Shown: one piece after another, positions 4,975 through 51,113 of the stretch
Layout of the letters: each line of letters begins with the position of its first letter
Numbering within the stretch: the first letter of the stretch is position 1
Sequence record: MZ417521
Reading direction: 5' to 3' (one strand)
Length of the DNA stretch: 64,000 nt
Source: Escherichia phage 132
Made by a program: the position numbers and the translations under genes
The notes under the pieces: model-generated
What the model was told of the DNA's origin: nothing
What the model saw: only the letters and a program-made list of their open reading frames with translations
Database searches by the model: none

Positions 4975-5151
4975 TTACCCTTTAAGTAAGTCGTAAAAAC
5001 CACCATTCACATGCTTAGGAGCAGAAGGCCGACGAGTAGACAAACGATGACATTTAGGGCAAACATCATTTTCTCGTTCAGAAATCTTTTTAATTTTTTC
5101 ATATTCATGCCCGCAATCTTCGGATTGGCATTTATAATCATACATTGGCAT
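4975..5151 (-). CDS. small zinc-ribbon protein (FmdB-like CxxC...CxxC), 58 aa; below the 60-aa cutoff of the ORF track
   Basis: ATG at 5149-5151 preceded by AAGGA; product MPMYDYKCQSEDCGHEYEKI...CPKCH; stop sits 2 nt before the next start. Confidence 0.45.
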   Translation of the reverse strand: MPMYDYKCQSEDCGHEYEKIKKISERENDVCPKCHRLSTRRPSAPKHVNGGFYDLLKG

Positions 5152-5153
5152 AA

Positions 5154-5579
5154 TTATTCCTTAAAGTGTGCTTTCAGCATTTGATACAAGGACCATGCCT
5201 GTTCATTATTTTCAATAGTAACTTTCATGACAGGAAATTCTGTGAAATCTTCTATTTGTTCTTGCTCTTTCTCTTCCTGCTCTTGCTCTTCAGCTGCCTG
5301 ATATGGATTTTCCACTTCATCAAAGAACTCGGCTTCGTTAGTAGAGAGCCAGATAAAGTTTTCGTCAAGGATATCACCATGTGTTGCATATCCAATTGTG
5401 CCAGTAAATGACATAATTTTAGTAGGACGACCAAGATGGTCAACATCTAAAATTTTAAAAGGATGCATACCTAAACGTCGTGCATAAATTCCGTTATCAG
5501 TATGGTCTTTAATAAAAGCTTCTTGAGCTTGTTTATTTTTAAATTGATACCATTTATTAACTTCAAATTTAATAGCCAT
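5154..5579 (-). CDS. hypothetical acidic protein, 141 aa (size and position of T4 goF)
   Basis: ATG ORF; glutamate-rich internal stretch; assignment by position and length only. Confidence 0.5.
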
Positions 5580-5794
5580 TAATAAATTTCCTTCCAGTAA
5601 GTTGTGCCATCTTCAGTAATTTCACGAAATACACCGTAAATTGGTTGTTTATCACCAACCTTTTCATACACATAAACCGAAGTCAAGTGAGTAAACTTAA
5701 CGGTATGTTCCTTTTGAACCACTACCAAATCTGGATCAAATAATACATCTTCAAATTCGTCATTAGTGCAATTCTGAACAATTTTACGTTTCAT
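5579..5794 (-). CDS. hypothetical protein, 71 aa (size and position of T4 cef)
   Basis: ATG ORF, 1-nt overlap with the downstream gene. Confidence 0.45.
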
Positions 5795-5807
5795 TACAAT
5801 TTCCTCA

Positions 5808-6077
5808 TTAATTAAACATTGGAGCGATACGTTTCAGAAGAGTAGCAGCACCTTTAGCGAATTTTACATCATGAAAAACAGTTTCTTCTTCTGTAACAAC
5901 TCGAACTTTAATATTTTCACAATCCCAATTTTTACGAACAATCTTCAAAAGCTGCAGTAAATCTTTACATTCAGCAATATCGATAACACATCCACGAGAA
6001 TCTTCCATTATCGCACGATAACCGTAAGCCATACCATAATCGTTAAAAGATTGCTCGATGATAATTAAGTTTTCCAT
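5808..6077 (-). CDS. hypothetical protein, 89 aa
   Basis: track start is TTG; ATG at 6075-6077 preceded by GGAGA. Confidence 0.45.
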   Translation of the reverse strand: MENLIIIEQSFNDYGMAYGYRAIMEDSRGCVIDIAECKDLLQLLKIVRKNWDCENIKVRVVTEEETVFHDVKFAKGAATLLKRIAPMFN

Positions 6078-38490: not shown

Positions 38491-38658
38491 GAGTTTAATT
38501 TCCTTAGCAACTGAACTAAATACAGCACGGTCACAAATCATGTGTTTGTTCCATTTAAGTACAGTATAATGAACATCTAGATCATCTACTGCTGTAACAA
38601 TAACAATATGTCCGTTAACACGATAATACTGATCCTTTTTAATCTCTTTATCAACCAT
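38483..38658 (-). CDS. small hypothetical protein, 58 aa; below the ORF-track cutoff
   Basis: ATG at 38656-38658 preceded by GAGGA; stop overlaps the next start; hand-translated. Confidence 0.3.
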
Positions 38659-38688
38659 ATCAAATCCTCAAAGGCAATTCATATGTTA

Positions 38689-38718
38689 ATAATACCACAG
38701 TTTGAACTTCTTGTAAAC
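38689..38718 (-). promoter_or_regulatory. T4-type early promoter (-10 TATTAT)
   Basis: gtaaac 38713-38718, ataata 38689-38694 on plus strand. Confidence 0.45.
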
Positions 38719-38789
38719 AACTTTGTGAAATTATTTTAGGGAATGATAAGAAGTGAATGATAGTTAGAATGGTAATATACAGAATGTGA

Positions 38790-38810
38790 GAAAGAAAGGC
38801 CCAGAGGGCC
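38790..38810 (-). terminator. intrinsic terminator downstream of nrdH
   Basis: ggcccagagggcc hairpin at 38798-38810 with U-rich tract following on the transcript. Confidence 0.55.
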
Positions 38811-38814
38811 CGTC

Positions 38815-39123
38815 TTAGTCTTCTATGATATCTCTATCATATCCAAGTGAAATGAGAGTTTCTTTGAAGTGTTTAATGTTCTTTTGTCTAGAATCATTAA
38901 TGAAAATGACTGGATAACGAATGTTAAGAGATGTGAATCCAGCGCGTTTAGCAAGAGATACAATCAGTGGACGATCATACTCAATCTTACCATTATTTGT
39001 AAGAACTTTATAGAAAGTAAAAGGAGCATTGAGCTCCTTTAGAAGTTTTGTAACTGATTGACATCCAGGACAACGACCTACTTCATCTGGAATTCCATAG
39101 ACTTCAATCTTATTTTGTTTCAC
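38815..39123 (-). CDS. nrdH: glutaredoxin-like protein NrdH, 102 aa
   Basis: CPGC redox motif; T4 NrdH length; GTG start with AAGGA upstream. Confidence 0.7.
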   Translation of the reverse strand: MKQNKIEVYGIPDEVGRCPGCQSVTKLLKELNAPFTFYKVLTNNGKIEYDRPLIVSLAKRAGFTSLNIRYPVIFINDSRQKNIKHFKETLISLGYDRDIIED

Positions 39124-39125
39124 AA

Positions 39126-39338
39126 CTATTCCTTACTAAGAGCAGCATTCAGCTTGTTAGTAATTTTATCCAGACGCTTATTGAACTCACTAGAAGATAA
39201 GCCTTTTTCTGGAGAAATTAAGCTAATCACGAAAAATATAGCAATAAAAGGAATAAGAAAAATAGCACCAACTGCCATAAACAAAAAGAACGTTACAGTT
39301 GTAAGAAAATCAGCTAAACCTTTACGAAATTTATACAT
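39126..39338 (-). CDS. small membrane protein, 70 aa
   Basis: ATG ORF; central hydrophobic helix. Confidence 0.45.
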   Translation of the reverse strand: MYKFRKGLADFLTTVTFFLFMAVGAIFLIPFIAIFFVISLISPEKGLSSSEFNKRLDKITNKLNAALSKE

Positions 39339-39453
39339 ATTTTACCCTTAATTGATTAACCAAGCATTGATAAGCACTAAACTATATTGCGAATAAAATT
39401 CTGGACCAAAATGAAAAATCATATCATTTATAGTATCCATAATATAATTCAAT

Positions 39454-39924
39454 TTAATCATGTTTCCACACCCCATCAGTATTTGACCAAAGCCGCTGAT
39501 TATCTGATCCTCGCCACAGCTTTTTAGTCGGAAGATTTTTCTTATACTTCCCATCAATAATAACATCAACATATTTAAGCATTTCTAGTTGTTTAATATC
39601 TTCAAACTTATATCCTGTCCACAACCAAATGCTTTTATTGGGATAAAGATTTTTTACTGTTTGAACGATGCAATGAATAACATCTCGGTTATCAGGATAG
39701 AGAGGGTCACCTCCGGTTATAGTCAATCCTTCTATATAATCATTATTCAAACATTCAATCAATTGTTCTAGTGTTTCACCAGTGAATGGAATACCATTTC
39801 TAGCATTCCATGTTGATTTATTATAACACCCTTCACATTTATGCAAACAACCTGTAACGAAAAGAACGACCCTGCATCCAGGACCATTAACAAAGCAGCA
39901 CGGGTATATTCTGTCATAATTCAT
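39454..39924 (-). CDS. nrdG: anaerobic ribonucleotide reductase activating protein NrdG (radical SAM)
   Basis: CxxxCxxC cluster motif (CLHKCEGC); start set to ATG 39922-39924; position next to nrdD. Confidence 0.8.
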   Translation of the reverse strand: MNYDRIYPCCFVNGPGCRVVLFVTGCLHKCEGCYNKSTWNARNGIPFTGETLEQLIECLNNDYIEGLTITGGDPLYPDNRDVIHCIVQTVKNLYPNKSIWLWTGYKFEDIKQLEMLKYVDVIIDGKYKKNLPTKKLWRGSDNQRLWSNTDGVWKHD

Positions 39925-40751
39925 AATAATATCCAATTTTTCCAAGCTTCATCAGTAGAATTACAGCGTTTTAGTATAAGATGTCTAGAAACTTTTATGG
40001 CATTTGAGCACTTTTTAATTGAATCATATTTAATACCGTCAACTGAAACGGTTTTGCTAGTTGGAGAAATTTTTCCATACATTGGATTTTTTGAACCAAC
40101 TTGAAGTCCTTTTAAAGCTTTTGAAAGCTTTTGTCTAGATTCCAATGACATGGGAGAATTCTTTTTACCTTCAATAATTCGCTTGCGATGAAGTTCGCGT
40201 TCTTCTTCACTCAAAGAATTGTAATATTTTTTAACACCGTTTGATATAGATAATTTATCTTTCTCAGACCGCTCTCCAGCTAATTTACTTCTAACATCTT
40301 TTCGCTTCATAGCTATGCTTACGGCTTTATTTAAATTTGCTTGATGCTCTGGCGTACGTTTATATTTCTTTAAAGCACGTGAAATAGCTATTTTAGTTTC
40401 TTCTGTTCTCTTTTTACCTTTATTTGCTAAACTATTTTTGTGGCGATGTTCAAGTGTCTGTTCATAAGCAGTTCCACCTTTTCCACCGGGTTTAATATTA
40501 TATGTATTTTCTTTTAGACAATACTCTTCGGTTACAAGTTCAGCTTCTTTATCATACATTTGTTTTTCATTATCAAAAACATGTAAAATTTCTTTATTAA
40601 AATTTTTTCTACCATATTTTAATAAAGCGGCACGAATCAATGTTCCTGATCCCATATAACCGTCATTTATGTTATCGGTGCTATGCGCACCGATATATTC
40701 CTTTGAATTAATTATATTTGTTATTTTATAAATTATATAATACCTATGCAT
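39921..40751 (-). CDS. free-standing GIY-YIG homing endonuclease (seg-like), 276 aa
   Basis: N-terminal GIY-YIG motif (YIIYKITN...EYIGAHS); basic C-terminal repeats typical of NUMOD-type DNA-binding tails; wedged between nrdG and nrdD with overlaps on both sides. Confidence 0.75.
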   Translation of the reverse strand: MHRYYIIYKITNIINSKEYIGAHSTDNINDGYMGSGTLIRAALLKYGRKNFNKEILHVFDNEKQMYDKEAELVTEEYCLKENTYNIKPGGKGGTAYEQTLEHRHKNSLANKGKKRTEETKIAISRALKKYKRTPEHQANLNKAVSIAMKRKDVRSKLAGERSEKDKLSISNGVKKYYNSLSEEERELHRKRIIEGKKNSPMSLESRQKLSKALKGLQVGSKNPMYGKISPTSKTVSVDGIKYDSIKKCSNAIKVSRHLILKRCNSTDEAWKNWILL

Positions 40752-42561
40752 GTTTTACTCGTTTTACCATTTCTTTCATTTTACCTAAATTCCATGGAAC
40801 AACGCTAGGAGTTCCAAGATATCCGCATGTTCTTCTTATGGTGTTCATCTTTTTAGGATCAGTTTCTCCACAAATAGAACAAACAAATCCGTTTTCAGTA
40901 GGAGTCATTTCATGGGTACTTCCGCATGTAAAACATTTATCTACTGGCATATTAACACCAAAATAATCTAAATGTTGTGCAGCATAATCCCATACAGCCT
41001 CAAGACCCTTTAGGTTATTTTTCATATCAGGAAGTTCAACATAAGAAATGTGACCACCTGTCGCAATGAAATGATATGGGGCTTCGCGAGAAATCTTTTC
41101 AAATGGAGTAATATTTTCTTCTACTGAAACGTGGAAACTGTTAGTGTACCAGCCTTTATCGGTAACATCTTTTACACTTCCATATTTTTCGGTATCAAGT
41201 TTACAGAAGCGATAGCACAGGTTTTCAGCAGGAGTAGAATACAAACTAAAAGCAAAACCAGTTCTTTCAGTCCATTGTTTAAGATGAGTATTCATTTTAG
41301 TTAAAATTTCTTGTCCAATATCACGACCAACAAGAATATTCAATTCGTGAATACCAATGTATCCTAGGGACACTGAACTTCTACCGTTTTTAAATAACTC
41401 AATTATGTCATCGTCAGGTTTAAGACGAACCCCGAATGCACCTTCTTGGTAAAGAATAGGAGCAACAGTCGCTTTAACTCCTTTTAAGGAACTAATTCTA
41501 CACATCAATACTTCAAAACATAAATCCATTCGTTCATTGAACAATTCAGTAAATTTCTGTTCATTGAACTGTGTTCCAATATAAGAATCTAACGCAATAC
41601 GAGGAAGATTCAGTGTTACAACACCAAGATTATTACGTCCATCAAGAATTTCATTACCAGTCGAATCTTTCCATACGCCCAAGAAACTACGGCAACCCAT
41701 TGGAGAAACAGGAATAGATGAACCTGTGATAGCTTTATTGTTCTTAGCCGAAATGATGTCAGGATACATTCTTTTGCTTGCACACTCTAGAGCAAGCTGC
41801 TTAATATCATAGTTCGGATCGTCTTTATAAAGATTAACACCTTCTTCAACGAACATAACAAGCTTAGGGAAAATAGGAGTTATCCCATCACGACCGAGAC
41901 CTTTAATGCGATTTTTCAGAATTGCTTTCTGAATCATTCGTTCAGTCCAGTCAGTTCCCGTACCAAATGTAATTGTTACAAAAGGCGTTTGTCCGTTTGA
42001 ACTAAAGAGAGTATTTACTTCATATTCATAAGCTTGGAACGCATCGTATACGTCTTTTTCTGTTTTAGACTGGGCGTAATTCAACGCGTCAGCGATTTGC
42101 CATTTTTCTGCGTCCTCAATATGTTTTGCATAGGTGCGTTTAACATAAGGAGAAAGGACTTTATCTACATTCGCAAAAGTCGTTCCACCATATTGATGGG
42201 AAGCAACCTGTGCAGTAATTTGTGCCATAATTGCAGTAGCAACGCCAATTGATTTAGGAGTTTCAATCTGTGCATTACCGAGCTTAAATCCGTTCTCAAG
42301 CATTCCTTTTAAATCTACTAAACAGCAATTAGTAAATGGAAGAGCAGGGGAATAATCAATATCGTGGAAATGGATAATTCCGCTTTCATGCGCTTTCATA
42401 ATAAAAGACGGGACCATATTTTTGGCAATGTGTTTAGACACAATACCAGCCATAAGGTCCCGTTGAGTTGGAAAAACACGAGAATCTTTATTAGCATTCT
42501 CGTTTAAAAGGTCTTTATTAGTTTTATGAATTAATCCTTCAATTTCTTTTTCAATTGTCAT
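40744..42561 (-). CDS. nrdD: anaerobic ribonucleotide reductase NrdD (glycyl radical enzyme), 605 aa, intronless
   Basis: C-terminal glycyl radical motif RRTCGYLG and zinc ribbon (CFTCGS...CSICG); T4 NrdD length as one ORF. Confidence 0.9.
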   Translation of the reverse strand: MTIEKEIEGLIHKTNKDLLNENANKDSRVFPTQRDLMAGIVSKHIAKNMVPSFIMKAHESGIIHFHDIDYSPALPFTNCCLVDLKGMLENGFKLGNAQIETPKSIGVATAIMAQITAQVASHQYGGTTFANVDKVLSPYVKRTYAKHIEDAEKWQIADALNYAQSKTEKDVYDAFQAYEYEVNTLFSSNGQTPFVTITFGTGTDWTERMIQKAILKNRIKGLGRDGITPIFPKLVMFVEEGVNLYKDDPNYDIKQLALECASKRMYPDIISAKNNKAITGSSIPVSPMGCRSFLGVWKDSTGNEILDGRNNLGVVTLNLPRIALDSYIGTQFNEQKFTELFNERMDLCFEVLMCRISSLKGVKATVAPILYQEGAFGVRLKPDDDIIELFKNGRSSVSLGYIGIHELNILVGRDIGQEILTKMNTHLKQWTERTGFAFSLYSTPAENLCYRFCKLDTEKYGSVKDVTDKGWYTNSFHVSVEENITPFEKISREAPYHFIATGGHISYVELPDMKNNLKGLEAVWDYAAQHLDYFGVNMPVDKCFTCGSTHEMTPTENGFVCSICGETDPKKMNTIRRTCGYLGTPSVVPWNLGKMKEMVKRVKHA

Positions 42562-43031
42562 TTTAAACTCTTTCTAAGCTGCTTCTTAAATGAAGCTATT
42601 AATTGTGTTTTAGTGTCAGATTCATTATATTCAAATCCTCTTTGAAGCATCTCAGCCATCATTTCCTCTTTTCCTAAACGAGAAAATTCCTTTGATTTAT
42701 CTCCAACAAAGTTAGGGTGAATATTATTTTGGGTGTAATCGGATTTTAAATAAGTAAGTAAATTTTCTAACCATTCAAGATAATCAACACCTTGTCCCTT
42801 TAAGCCAGAACGATTAAATTTGTGTTTCATTTGACCTTCTGCTGCATTACAGAGATTACAGAGCAATCCACGTACCTTTCCAGCTTTCGGTCCATTTAAT
42901 TCATGGTCATGGTCAAGGTGATTAGCTTGAACATCAGGATTTAATTCTCGTTGGCAAATTAAGCATTTACCGTTTTGTGCATTATAAAATTTTTGTTTTT
43001 CTTCTTTGTATAATTTGCCAGTCAATAACAT
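42558..43031 (-). CDS. 49: endonuclease VII (Holliday junction resolvase), 157 aa
   Basis: zinc-binding N-terminus (CLICQ...HLDHDH) and T4 gp49 length. Confidence 0.85.
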   Translation of the reverse strand: MLLTGKLYKEEKQKFYNAQNGKCLICQRELNPDVQANHLDHDHELNGPKAGKVRGLLCNLCNAAEGQMKHKFNRSGLKGQGVDYLEWLENLLTYLKSDYTQNNIHPNFVGDKSKEFSRLGKEEMMAEMLQRGFEYNESDTKTQLIASFKKQLRKSLK

Positions 43032-43080
43032 AATAAAACCCTTACCTTAAATAGATAAGGGTATTTATTATTTTCAAGTA

Positions 43081-43527
43081 TTAAAACGCTCGGTCAGAAA
43101 AAGAAATTTGAGTTTCAAGCCATTCAATATATTCTGCCGCAGCTTGCATCAAATTTCCTTCATAACCATCGTTATTTTCTTGCGCAGCCAATTTAGCTAA
43201 TGCATATGAAATGCGTTCACCTTGAAAAGCGGCTTTAGGTTTATGAATAGCTTGATCAACTCGTTCTACAACTTCTTCAATTTCGCCATTTTCTACTGAT
43301 TCAGTATTCCACAAGCACCAATACGTAATTGGCTTATCATAGATGTTAATAATCTTTCCGTCAGAAAGTTCAATTTCAATAATTCCAGTATCAGGTTCTA
43401 TATCATCTTCGCATTCTTTTGCAAGTTCACGAACTTTAAAGACAGTACCTGCACTAAGTTCCGGCCAGTAATTACACAACCCTATATCAGCACGATTAAT
43501 TCTAAACCACTTATCTACTGTAATCAT
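43081..43527 (-). CDS. hypothetical protein, about 148 aa (position of T4 pin)
   Basis: track start is TTG; ATG at 43525-43527 preceded by GGAGA. Confidence 0.4.
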   Translation of the reverse strand: MITVDKWFRINRADIGLCNYWPELSAGTVFKVRELAKECEDDIEPDTGIIEIELSDGKIINIYDKPITYWCLWNTESVENGEIEEVVERVDQAIHKPKAAFQGERISYALAKLAAQENNDGYEGNLMQAAAEYIEWLETQISFSDRAF

Positions 43528-50393: not shown

Positions 50394-51113
50394 TTAGGAT
50401 TCTTCTAAATGTCTTTTCTGAAAAGTTGATACCATACTACGATACGGTTCATTTGGATACCCGTGTTTTATAGCTTCCTTTGTAAATTTTCTCCATCCAT
50501 ATTTAGTTTCTTTCCAAAGCTCGAATAATTCATCTTCATATTGCCATATAGTTAAATGAGAACGCTTTGCAGCTTTAATTCCATTAATATGCTTTTCTTT
50601 TACTACAGGATTGCTTAGTTTCTTTTTAATAATATTACTAACTTTTCTAACAAAAACTGGGTCCTTATATCGTTGCGAAGTTTTTATTGAAGTGTTTAAT
50701 TTAGCTTCCGGCGTGGATGTGACCTCTTTCATCTTTTTCTTCATATGCTGTATATGATTAGGATTTTTCCATAAATTTATAGAATGCTTTTTGCATTTTA
50801 TCCTAGTTTCATCTGCAACCTTTCCTCCTTCACCCCCGTATGACAGGTTAACACAGTTTTTTCCATATTTCAATTTACCTGCCATGATATATAATATTTC
50901 AGCTTGTACCATTTTATCATAATTATCAAAAACTTCTAAAACCGTTTTTGATAATATGTGGTCATTTGACACTTTTACACGTTCTATATAATTTCCACTA
51001 CCAACATACGAATCATTGATGTTATTAGTTATATGTCGACCATAATAGTATTTCTTAATACCTGTCTTTAAATTTAATATTTCAGTTTTATAGATAGTAA
51101 AATATTTTTTCAT
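50394..51113 (-). CDS. free-standing GIY-YIG-like homing endonuclease, 239 aa
   Basis: N-terminal FTIYKTEI...YYYGRH (GIY-YIG-like with YYG); basic C-terminal half; start ATG overlaps the stop of the AAA+ gene. Confidence 0.6.
   Translation of the reverse strand: MKKYFTIYKTEILNLKTGIKKYYYGRHITNNINDSYVGSGNYIERVKVSNDHILSKTVLEVFDNYDKMVQAEILYIMAGKLKYGKNCVNLSYGGEGGKVADETRIKCKKHSINLWKNPNHIQHMKKKMKEVTSTPEAKLNTSIKTSQRYKDPVFVRKVSNIIKKKLSNPVVKEKHINGIKAAKRSHLTIWQYEDELFELWKETKYGWRKFTKEAIKHGYPNEPYRSMVSTFQKRHLEES

Follow-up and report, generated by a model that had tools for sequence, protein, structure and literature searches.

The open reading frame between nrdD and nrdG in Escherichia phage 132 is, judged by its sequence, segH, a known selfish gene of T4-like phages. 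It occupies positions 39921..40751 on the minus strand (276 codons plus stop) of the 64,000-nucleotide stretch of this T-even phage (Tequatrovirus; record MZ417521) that was analysed, referred to here as the window, and it is a free-standing GIY-YIG homing endonuclease gene. The encoded protein is identical at 276 of 276 amino acids to SegH of phage LZ2 (ABI48951.1, AY262139.2), which shares the gene order, and the two genes differ by 4 nucleotides, all synonymous. The annotated T6 segH product is 98.6% identical to the window protein, PHROG 314 ('homing endonuclease') matches it at 3.6e-60, and its nearest database homologue is found at E = 7e-174, which is not a chance match. The closest known system is SegH of LZ2, T6, PP01 and RB3 (Sandegren, Nord and Sjoberg 2005, Nucleic Acids Res 33:6203). 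The window has in common with LZ2 and T6 the position between nrdD and nrdG, the gene overlaps and a recoded nrdD tail; nothing of substance separates it from LZ2, with a flanking backbone that is 3–4% diverged. The title of the 2005 paper, together with later citations of it, indicates that site-specific cleavage by SegH near its own locus was reported there, and parts of the later literature describe some T4 relatives as carrying the GIY-YIG gene segH in place of mobC at the nrdD/nrdG position. The gene was named in 2005 and already bears the name segH in the annotations of T6, PP01 and KM16. The observation is real but ordinary and adds no new kind of biology; its interest is in confirming that a new T-even isolate carries a textbook type of selfish element.

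The minus-strand gene order is gene 49, nrdD, segH, nrdG, and segH is a separate open reading frame flanked by two complete genes in the same orientation, not one lying inside an intron or intein. The large subunit of the anaerobic ribonucleotide reductase is encoded by nrdD (40744..42561, minus strand; Pfam NRDD, 570 bits), which has 605 codons and no intron. It is colinear with exon 1 plus exon 2 of T4 nrdD and lacks only T4's 1033-nt group I intron, the empty site of which falls at approximately 42023..42024 (minus strand, after nrdD nt ~538 by alignment with T4). An Rfam scan of positions 38500–43500 found no group I intron and nothing else of relevance, whereas the T4 control scored 105 bits. 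The activase gene nrdG (39454..39924, minus strand; 156 codons; Fer4_12, 164 bits) starts at the ATG at 39924. A start at the TTG at 39945 was considered and rejected as an extension made by the ORF finder; T6 and all genomes with an empty site use the ATG.

The three genes are chained by short overlaps. The segH ATG at 40751 falls in the 3' end of nrdD, among its final codons and stop, an overlap of 8 nt (ATGCATAG; 40744..40751, minus strand), and the segH stop (TGA) shares an ATGA with the start of nrdG (39921..39924, minus strand). The initial annotation had described a 276-aa GIY-YIG gene, taken to be a free-standing homing endonuclease between nrdG and an intronless, 605-codon nrdD. The gene, the uninterrupted nrdD and the main reading all stand, as does the overlap with the nrdG start. 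The second overlap had been placed at the start of nrdD, which is incorrect: all of these genes are on the minus strand, and it is the last 8 nt of nrdD, including the stop, that segH overlaps.

The catalytic GIY-YIG domain occupies residues 1–95 of SegH (40467..40751, minus strand) and belongs to the SegE_GIY-YIG type with the I-TevI fold. When the N-terminal 102 residues were scanned alone, SegE_GIY-YIG (PF19835) scored 30.9 bits (cut-off 25); on the full-length protein the score was just 18.6 bits against the same cut-off, and the generic GIY-YIG model PF01541 reached 16.4 bits, under its cut-off of 22.6. A PDB profile search with the catalytic domain returned the I-TevI catalytic domain as its only match, and hhalign gave a probability of 94%; a profile was required, as a single-sequence phmmer search of the PDB with SegH gave chance matches only. 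The AlphaFold model is confident over residues 1–90 (pLDDT 91–98), and the best Foldseek matches of the domain in the PDB are the I-TevI entries 1mk0 and 1ln0 (target-normalised TM 0.59–0.64, probability 1.00). Tyr8, Tyr19-Ile-Gly21, His23, Glu69 and Asn85 are invariant across 32 homologues. The initial annotation had made the catalytic GIY-YIG residues its test on alignment, and Tyr8, Tyr19-Ile-Gly21, Glu69 and Asn85 pass it. In the alignment with I-TevI, the IIY (Tyr8) and YIG (Tyr19-Gly21) motifs align to Tyr6 and Tyr17, Asn85 aligns with Asn90, and Glu69 falls within one residue of Glu75. Compared with the SegH/SegB family profile, I-TevI has a 9-residue insertion that includes Arg27, and an equivalent of this Arg is not alignable. 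The corresponding deletion is common to the whole SegB/SegE-like subfamily, T4 SegB included. Among the 32 SegH homologues no Arg is invariant, and the column of Arg40 holds Lys or Arg; His23 and Lys68 are invariant.

Beyond the catalytic domain, a NUMOD3 DNA-binding motif was found in the linker at residues 200–228 (40068..40154, minus strand; PF07460, 32 bits, cut-off 20.4), followed by a C-terminal helix-turn-helix DNA-binding domain of the I-TevI type at residues 226–273 (39933..40076, minus strand). The latter scores 21.1 bits with PF20987, against a cut-off of 27, and is matched by Foldseek to the I-TevI DNA-binding domain 1i3j (probability 1.00; pLDDT 84–91). I-TevI, the endonuclease of the T4 td intron, is thus the sole PDB match for both ends of SegH, and the two share a build of GIY-YIG nuclease, flexible linker and C-terminal helix-turn-helix. 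They differ in that I-TevI is intron-encoded, that SegH does not have the Arg27-bearing helix, and that the SegH linker has NUMOD3 motifs, with no I-TevI-type zinc finger detected in SegH. T4 SegB has a catalytic domain that is 54% identical to that of SegH without gaps, with YIG, HST, DGYMGSG, the Glu and YN...GG in common. However, SegB is located in the tRNA gene region and is unrelated to SegH past residue ~95, which leads us to expect a different DNA target. Assignment of segH to the MobC/HNH group was rejected: the open reading frame has no HNH match, whereas T4 MobC, used as a control, matches PF01844.

Comparisons of genomes with and without segH, which had been proposed as a further check, show a clean polymorphism at the nrdD/nrdG junction and delimit a cassette larger than the gene. 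Over the last 90 nt of nrdD, segH+ and segH- genomes are separated by 27 fixed differences, compared with none across the 810 nt before; on the other side, 7 fall within the opening 30 nt of nrdG and none within the 700 nt that follow. Fixed differences are therefore limited to about 100 nt immediately flanking segH, and segH is always accompanied by recoded last ~22 codons of nrdD and variant first ~10 codons of nrdG. In the window the recoded nrdD tail comprises codons 584–605 plus stop (40744..40811, minus strand), with TPSVVPWNLGKMKEMVKRVKHA in place of NPNERGFNLGKNKEIMHRVKHQ. The variant nrdG head, with Asp10 changed to Cys, comprises the first ~32 nt (39893..39924, minus strand) and forms the right edge of the cassette. 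The cassette thus consists of the recoded last ~68 nt of nrdD, segH, and the variant first ~32 nt of nrdG. The segH-type nrdD tail is also present in T6, LZ2, PD112 and KM16, and its sequence was found in only 80 phage records. Fixing the cassette edges in this way is a modest use of the comparative data.

Among segH+ Tequatrovirus phages the cassette is 0.4–1.2% diverged compared with 3.0–3.7% in its flanks, a 3- to 8-fold reduction that is statistically significant (Fisher p from 1e-4 to 3e-9). Salmonella phage KM16 has the backbone of another genus and carries the same cassette at 92–94% identity. The body of its nrdD is 98% identical to that of an endonuclease-free relative (L019) and about 72% identical to that of the window, and from about nt 35 of nrdG onwards KM16 again has the sequence of its own backbone. 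The cassette consequently appears to be younger than its flanks and to have been transferred across genera. The dN/dS ratio of segH is 0.18 in all three protein regions, indicating purifying selection, and decayed copies exist: segH of PD112 has lost an internal stretch in frame, and that of sutha is frameshifted. Sharp cassette edges, low divergence, cross-genus transfer, selection and decay are, at the level of sequence comparison, the signatures expected of homing.

These results lead us to conclude that SegH is very probably a free-standing T-even GIY-YIG homing endonuclease that homes by copying of the nrdD/nrdG cassette. The protein would combine an N-terminal nuclease of the SegB/SegE type with a linker containing NUMOD3 and an I-TevI-like C-terminal helix-turn-helix that would confer site specificity. 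The gene seems to have no obvious promoter of its own. A sigma-70 scan of positions 39300–43200 found 7 sites compared with 16 in shuffled sequences and gives no evidence for a dedicated promoter of this class. The start and stop overlaps chain nrdD to segH to nrdG, and re-initiation is therefore the probable route by which segH is translated, at a low level. During co-infection of segH+ and segH- phages, and following what the literature describes for the gene and its family, SegH would cut the segH- DNA close to the nrdD/nrdG junction, and recombinational repair off the segH+ genome would copy the cassette into the recipient, with the recoded nrdD tail leaving NrdD at full length.

The role of the recoded tail is less clear-cut. 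We are somewhat inclined to believe that it removes or alters the sequence recognised by SegH in naive genomes. The 2005 SegH abstract reportedly has the enzyme cleaving both segH+ and segH- DNA; in that case the recoded flanks would not confer full immunity and could be mere carried-along donor sequence. Nor does conservation single out the tail as the target: in endonuclease-free lineages, DNA conservation of the native nrdD tail (0.58–0.60) is just a little above that of the rest of nrdD (0.49). It is quite possible, even if we lean the other way, that the nrdD tail and nrdG head are simply sequence of the donor lineage that abuts segH, too divergent to pair, rather than an immunity device. 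Besides the reported cleavage of segH+ DNA, this explanation gains from the left boundary of the cassette, which lies just where the strongly conserved glycyl-radical motif ends and crossover would come naturally, and from phage BCPSen_003, where a segH-type tail and head surround mobC and can thus exist without segH.

A second family member bears on this choice. Karamvirus-type phages (among them Cronobacter phage GAP161 and Enterobacter phage PF-CE2) carry a Seg-like gene whose product shares 47% identity with SegH along its entire length, DNA-binding end included. The gene directly follows nrdD, and there too a recoded nrdD tail starts right after the glycyl-radical motif. In these phages a 946-nt block, made up of the segH-like gene and a recoded version of the final 64 nt of nrdD, takes the place of precisely the 70 nt with which native nrdD ends, in flanks that are otherwise 97–99% identical. 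The arrangement differs from that of segH: 52 nt containing a strong hairpin separate the gene from nrdD, nrdG is ~2 kb distant, and NrdD carries an extra ATP-cone. Two SegH-family cassettes in different genera depart from a native tail conserved across genera at the same residues (ERGF, KNKE, IMHR), the Karamvirus block replaces the nrdD tail only, and among the loci compared no endonuclease-free lineage natively has such a tail. All three observations argue against simple donor sequence, the Karamvirus block speaks for a target in the nrdD tail, and replacement of the tail by the same gene family in a second phage genus suggests where the recognition site should be sought. We would put at about even chances the broader proposition that SegH-family elements are 'target-replacing' cassettes, in which the recoded last ~22 codons of nrdD destroy the recognition site while NrdD stays functional, that such cassettes arose or were kept in two phage genera, and that segH, mobC and other seg-like genes displace each other at this locus, making it a site of turnover. 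Part of the target-replacing idea may already be contained in the 2005 paper.

Retention of segH for a benefit to the phage, by exclusion of competitors' nrdD/nrdG markers or by local recombination and amplification as for SegB in T6, would be compatible with homing and seems unlikely to be what maintains the gene. According to the abstract of a 2026 paper (PMC13096335), amplification of anti-defence loci by SegB helps T6 to escape a defence system, and the catalytic domain of SegB is the one so similar to that of SegH; the dN/dS value also shows the SegH protein to be under selection. Such selection, however, is equally expected of an element that needs to keep homing, about 85% of related phage records have no gene at the junction, decayed copies persist, and no defence or anti-defence gene adjoins segH. 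That the window copy is an inactive relic is highly improbable: genes of this kind often decay once fixed, and relatives have deleted or frameshifted copies, but this one is a full-length frame under purifying selection, identical to the reference SegH and with all family-invariant residues kept.

Among phage records, ~564 have an empty nrdD/nrdG junction, ~70 have segH there and 32 have mobC. At empty junctions nrdD and nrdG overlap directly, stop to start, with the same ATGA architecture. MobC of T4 resembles SegH as the product of a free-standing gene of the homing-endonuclease type, at the same junction, in the same orientation and chained by overlaps (PMC2988022). It differs by its HNH domain (PF01844) and has no sequence similarity to SegH, and T4, which bears mobC, retains the native nrdD tail. 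The first 7 codons of mobC are a duplicate of the nrdG start, and all 32 copies are at least 99% identical.

The initial annotation also saw the T4 nrdD intron as an alternative solution at the same locus, which proved mistaken. The group I intron, with its I-TevII, is likewise a mobile element within the same host gene; however, it is intron-encoded, absent from the window, and located near codon 180 instead of the 3' end, some 1.3 kb from the junction that mobC occupies in T4. Phage N2 carries both the nrdD intron and segH, and the intron is therefore not an alternative to segH.

Elsewhere segH is often mis-annotated, as segD in RB3–RB10 or as a hypothetical protein, and its identification here should aid annotation.

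The window comes from a T-even phage of the genus Tequatrovirus and shares about 97.6% identity with many sequenced isolates. Every gene around segH is located on the minus strand, in the order gene 49 (endonuclease VII, 43031–42558), nrdD (605 codons, 42561–40744), the 276-codon segH ORF (40751–39921) and nrdG (39924–39454). The initial annotation described the ORF as overlapping the start region of nrdG at one end and the start of nrdD at the other. The former overlap is seen as an ATGA, in which the segH TGA overlaps the nrdG ATG, but the latter claim is wrong because the segH ATG lies within the final nrdD codons; it is the 3' end of nrdD that is overlapped, by 8 nt (ATGCATAG). A TTG at 39945, which only lengthens the ORF, was rejected as the nrdG start, since the ATG equivalent to 39924 is used in T6 and in every endonuclease-free relative. 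Several records annotate nrdG with a late start.

The same gene at the same place is annotated as segH in T6, PP01 and KM16. The SegH protein in GenBank AY262139.2 ('Bacteriophage LZ2 NrdD ... SegH (segH) gene, complete cds; and NrdG') is identical to the window protein at 276 of 276 residues; the two genes differ by 4 synonymous nucleotide changes. Later literature, for which the source is Sandegren, Nord and Sjoberg (2005), states that T4 carries mobC between nrdD and nrdG, and that some related genomes carry the GIY-YIG gene segH in its stead. The initial observation is real, save for which end of nrdD is overlapped, and its main interpretation as a free-standing homing endonuclease is correct; the element is a gene already named and characterised, and is not new. 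Only the structure of the cassette (a recoded nrdD tail, segH and a variant nrdG head) and its parallel in Karamvirus-type phages might add to the published record. In RB3, and likewise in RB5–RB10, segH is labelled 'segD' with a shortened start, and the full 276-codon ORF is intact.

The assignment of the 276-residue product to the GIY-YIG endonucleases is borne out by profile and structure comparisons. With full-length SegH, NUMOD3 alone exceeded the Pfam cut-off, and the N-terminal 102 residues scanned alone scored 30.9 bits against SegE_GIY-YIG (cut-off 25). The catalytic residues are present on alignment: Tyr8, Tyr19, Gly21, Glu69 and Asn85 are invariant across 32 aligned homologues, as is His23. 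A PDB search with the profile of these homologues returned only the I-TevI catalytic domain (94% probability by hhalign), the profile alignment pairing Tyr8 with Tyr6, Tyr19 with Tyr17 and Asn85 with Asn90, and placing Glu69 at most one residue from Glu75 of I-TevI. One canonical residue, Arg27 of I-TevI, has no alignable partner in SegH, and a 9-residue segment is absent there from the whole SegB/SegE-like subfamily. The AlphaFold model is confident at residues 1–90 and 230–276, and the four structures in the PDB that match it best are three chains of the I-TevI catalytic domain and the DNA-binding domain of I-TevI. Among the T4 seg endonucleases, SegB has a catalytic domain 54% identical to that of SegH without gaps; Brok-Volchanskaya et al. 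(2008) describe SegB in their title as a homing endonuclease.

Nine endonuclease-free contigs of Tequatrovirus represent the empty junction, where the stop codon of nrdD overlaps the start of nrdG (CAATGAATT). The phage collection contains 564 records with an uninterrupted junction, about 70 with full-length segH and 32 with mobC, the latter all at least 99% identical to the T4 gene. These records identify the T4 counterpart of the window's GIY-YIG gene as mobC, an HNH gene, and not as the nrdD intron, so that the description of segH as a different mobile-element solution to that intron at the same locus does not hold. In T4 (L002, 2907–3539), the first seven mobC codons (MNYDRIY) duplicate the first seven of nrdG, and mobC therefore begins exactly at the nrdG start of empty-site genomes. 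Salmonella phage BCPSen_003 (L046, 1800–2600) has a segH-type recoded nrdD tail, a mobC 99.5% identical to that of T4 and a segH-type nrdG head, with the left joint within a 10-nt stretch (CATGCATAGG) common to native and recoded tails; one endonuclease gene seems to have taken the place of the other.

The window nrdD is a single 605-codon ORF, as first described: it is colinear with exons 1 and 2 of T4, has no interruption and lacks the 1033-nt T4 intron, and an Rfam scan of 38500–43500 detected no intron, whereas the T4 control gave one. Nor is the intron an alternative to segH, because phage N2 carries both, with a group I intron (70.6 bits in Rfam) at the T4 position. The I-TevII homologue that it encodes (L040, 2851–3905) is only 56% identical to that of T4 and the intron region about 69% identical, making this a divergent allele that occupies the same insertion site. 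Across five endonuclease-free nrdD genes of different lineages, the 45-nt stretch with the highest DNA conservation coincides with the T4-type intron insertion site (nrdD nt ~496–550, window ~42000–42070).

We compared three segH+ genomes (the window, T6 and PD112) with ten genomes lacking segH (the nine with an empty junction and T4). Fixed differences are confined to the final ~70 nt of nrdD (27, with none in the preceding 810 nt) and the first ~30 nt of nrdG (7, with none in the following 700 nt). Judged from these alignments, the mobile unit is larger than the segH ORF. At the end of NrdD, segH+ genomes have TPSVVPWNLGKMKEMVKRVKHA and the others NPNERGFNLGKNKEIMHRVKHQ, the change beginning right after the glycyl-radical motif RRTCGYLG; at residue 10 of NrdG, segH+ genomes have Cys in place of Asp. 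In Escherichia phage FL18, a Mosigvirus (L047, 1670–3161), nearly all of nrdD is absent; downstream of gene 49, a 222-aa seg-like ORF runs in frame into the segH-type NrdD tail (...KTPSVVPWNLGKMKEMVKRVKHA), after which come an intact segH and nrdG.

segH bears signatures of homing, the standard life cycle of homing endonuclease genes comprising invasion, selection for activity and decay. In six other Tequatrovirus segH+ phages the cassette diverges from that of the window at 0.4–1.2% of positions, compared with 3.0–3.7% in the flanks (gene 49, the nrdD body and the rest of nrdG; Fisher p from 1e-4 to 3e-9). The nrdD body of Salmonella phage KM16 is 98% identical to that of an endonuclease-free contig of another lineage and only ~72% identical to the window, whereas the nrdD tail, segH and the first ~35 nt of nrdG are 90–94% identical to the window. 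At the level of sequence comparison, this pattern shows that the cassette moved horizontally between genera. The dN/dS of segH between the window and KM16 is 0.18, similar for the nuclease, linker and DNA-binding parts. Decayed copies exist in PD112 and sutha. In PD112 (L032, 2898–3206) segH is an 80-codon in-frame remnant joining residue ~46 to ~241, the deletion lying between two AAATATG repeats; this phage has a further 273-aa seg-like gene with NUMOD3 (5015–5836) that lies between gene 49 and nrdD, on the opposite side of nrdD from segH. In sutha (L039, 722–1556), the window's best database match over this region, segH is frameshifted after codon 29 and annotated as two pieces, which may represent a pseudogene or a sequencing error.

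In Karamvirus-type phages of Cronobacter, Enterobacter and Klebsiella, nrdD is immediately followed by a gene for a SegH homologue with 47% identity over its full length. Comparison of one such contig (L035) with a 97–99% identical relative that lacks the gene (L026) showed a 946-nt block in place of exactly the final 70 nt of the native nrdD, and no other change. Within the block, a recoded version of the last 64 nt of nrdD is followed by a 52-nt spacer and the endonuclease gene. Together with the segH cassette, it indicates that SegH-family genes bring a substitute nrdD tail from the same codon in two genera. We lean slightly towards the native nrdD tail being what this family recognises, in which case the substitute would remove the site and keep NrdD intact. 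However, the constant boundary could simply mark where a conserved homology block ends, conservation of the native tail only slightly exceeds that of the remainder of nrdD, and SegH reportedly also cuts segH+ DNA. Directly upstream of the segH-like ATG in L035 (4950–5000) is a 13-bp hairpin whose 3' arm contains a likely ribosome-binding site (GAGGG), which suggests translational repression of that gene.

A scan of 39300–43200 for sigma-70-type promoters revealed no excess. The start and stop overlaps of segH resemble those of segC, segF, mobA and mobC, for which re-initiation has been suggested to give a low level of translation (PMC2988022), and by this likeness segH would be translated in the same manner. 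Within segH, at the YIGAHSTD codons (40673–40695), lies a perfect 9-bp inverted repeat (TATCGGTGC-GCATA-GCACCGATA). T6 and KM16 conserve this repeat, and the Karamvirus homologue has only 5 bp of it; it may form a regulatory RNA hairpin or have arisen by chance. The nrdC-region genes include a second seg-like ORF, 239 aa in length (50394–51113, minus strand). It has no Pfam match at E < 0.01; over the first ~150 residues, which include an IY...YYG motif, it shares 31% identity with SegH (tblastn E = 2e-10).
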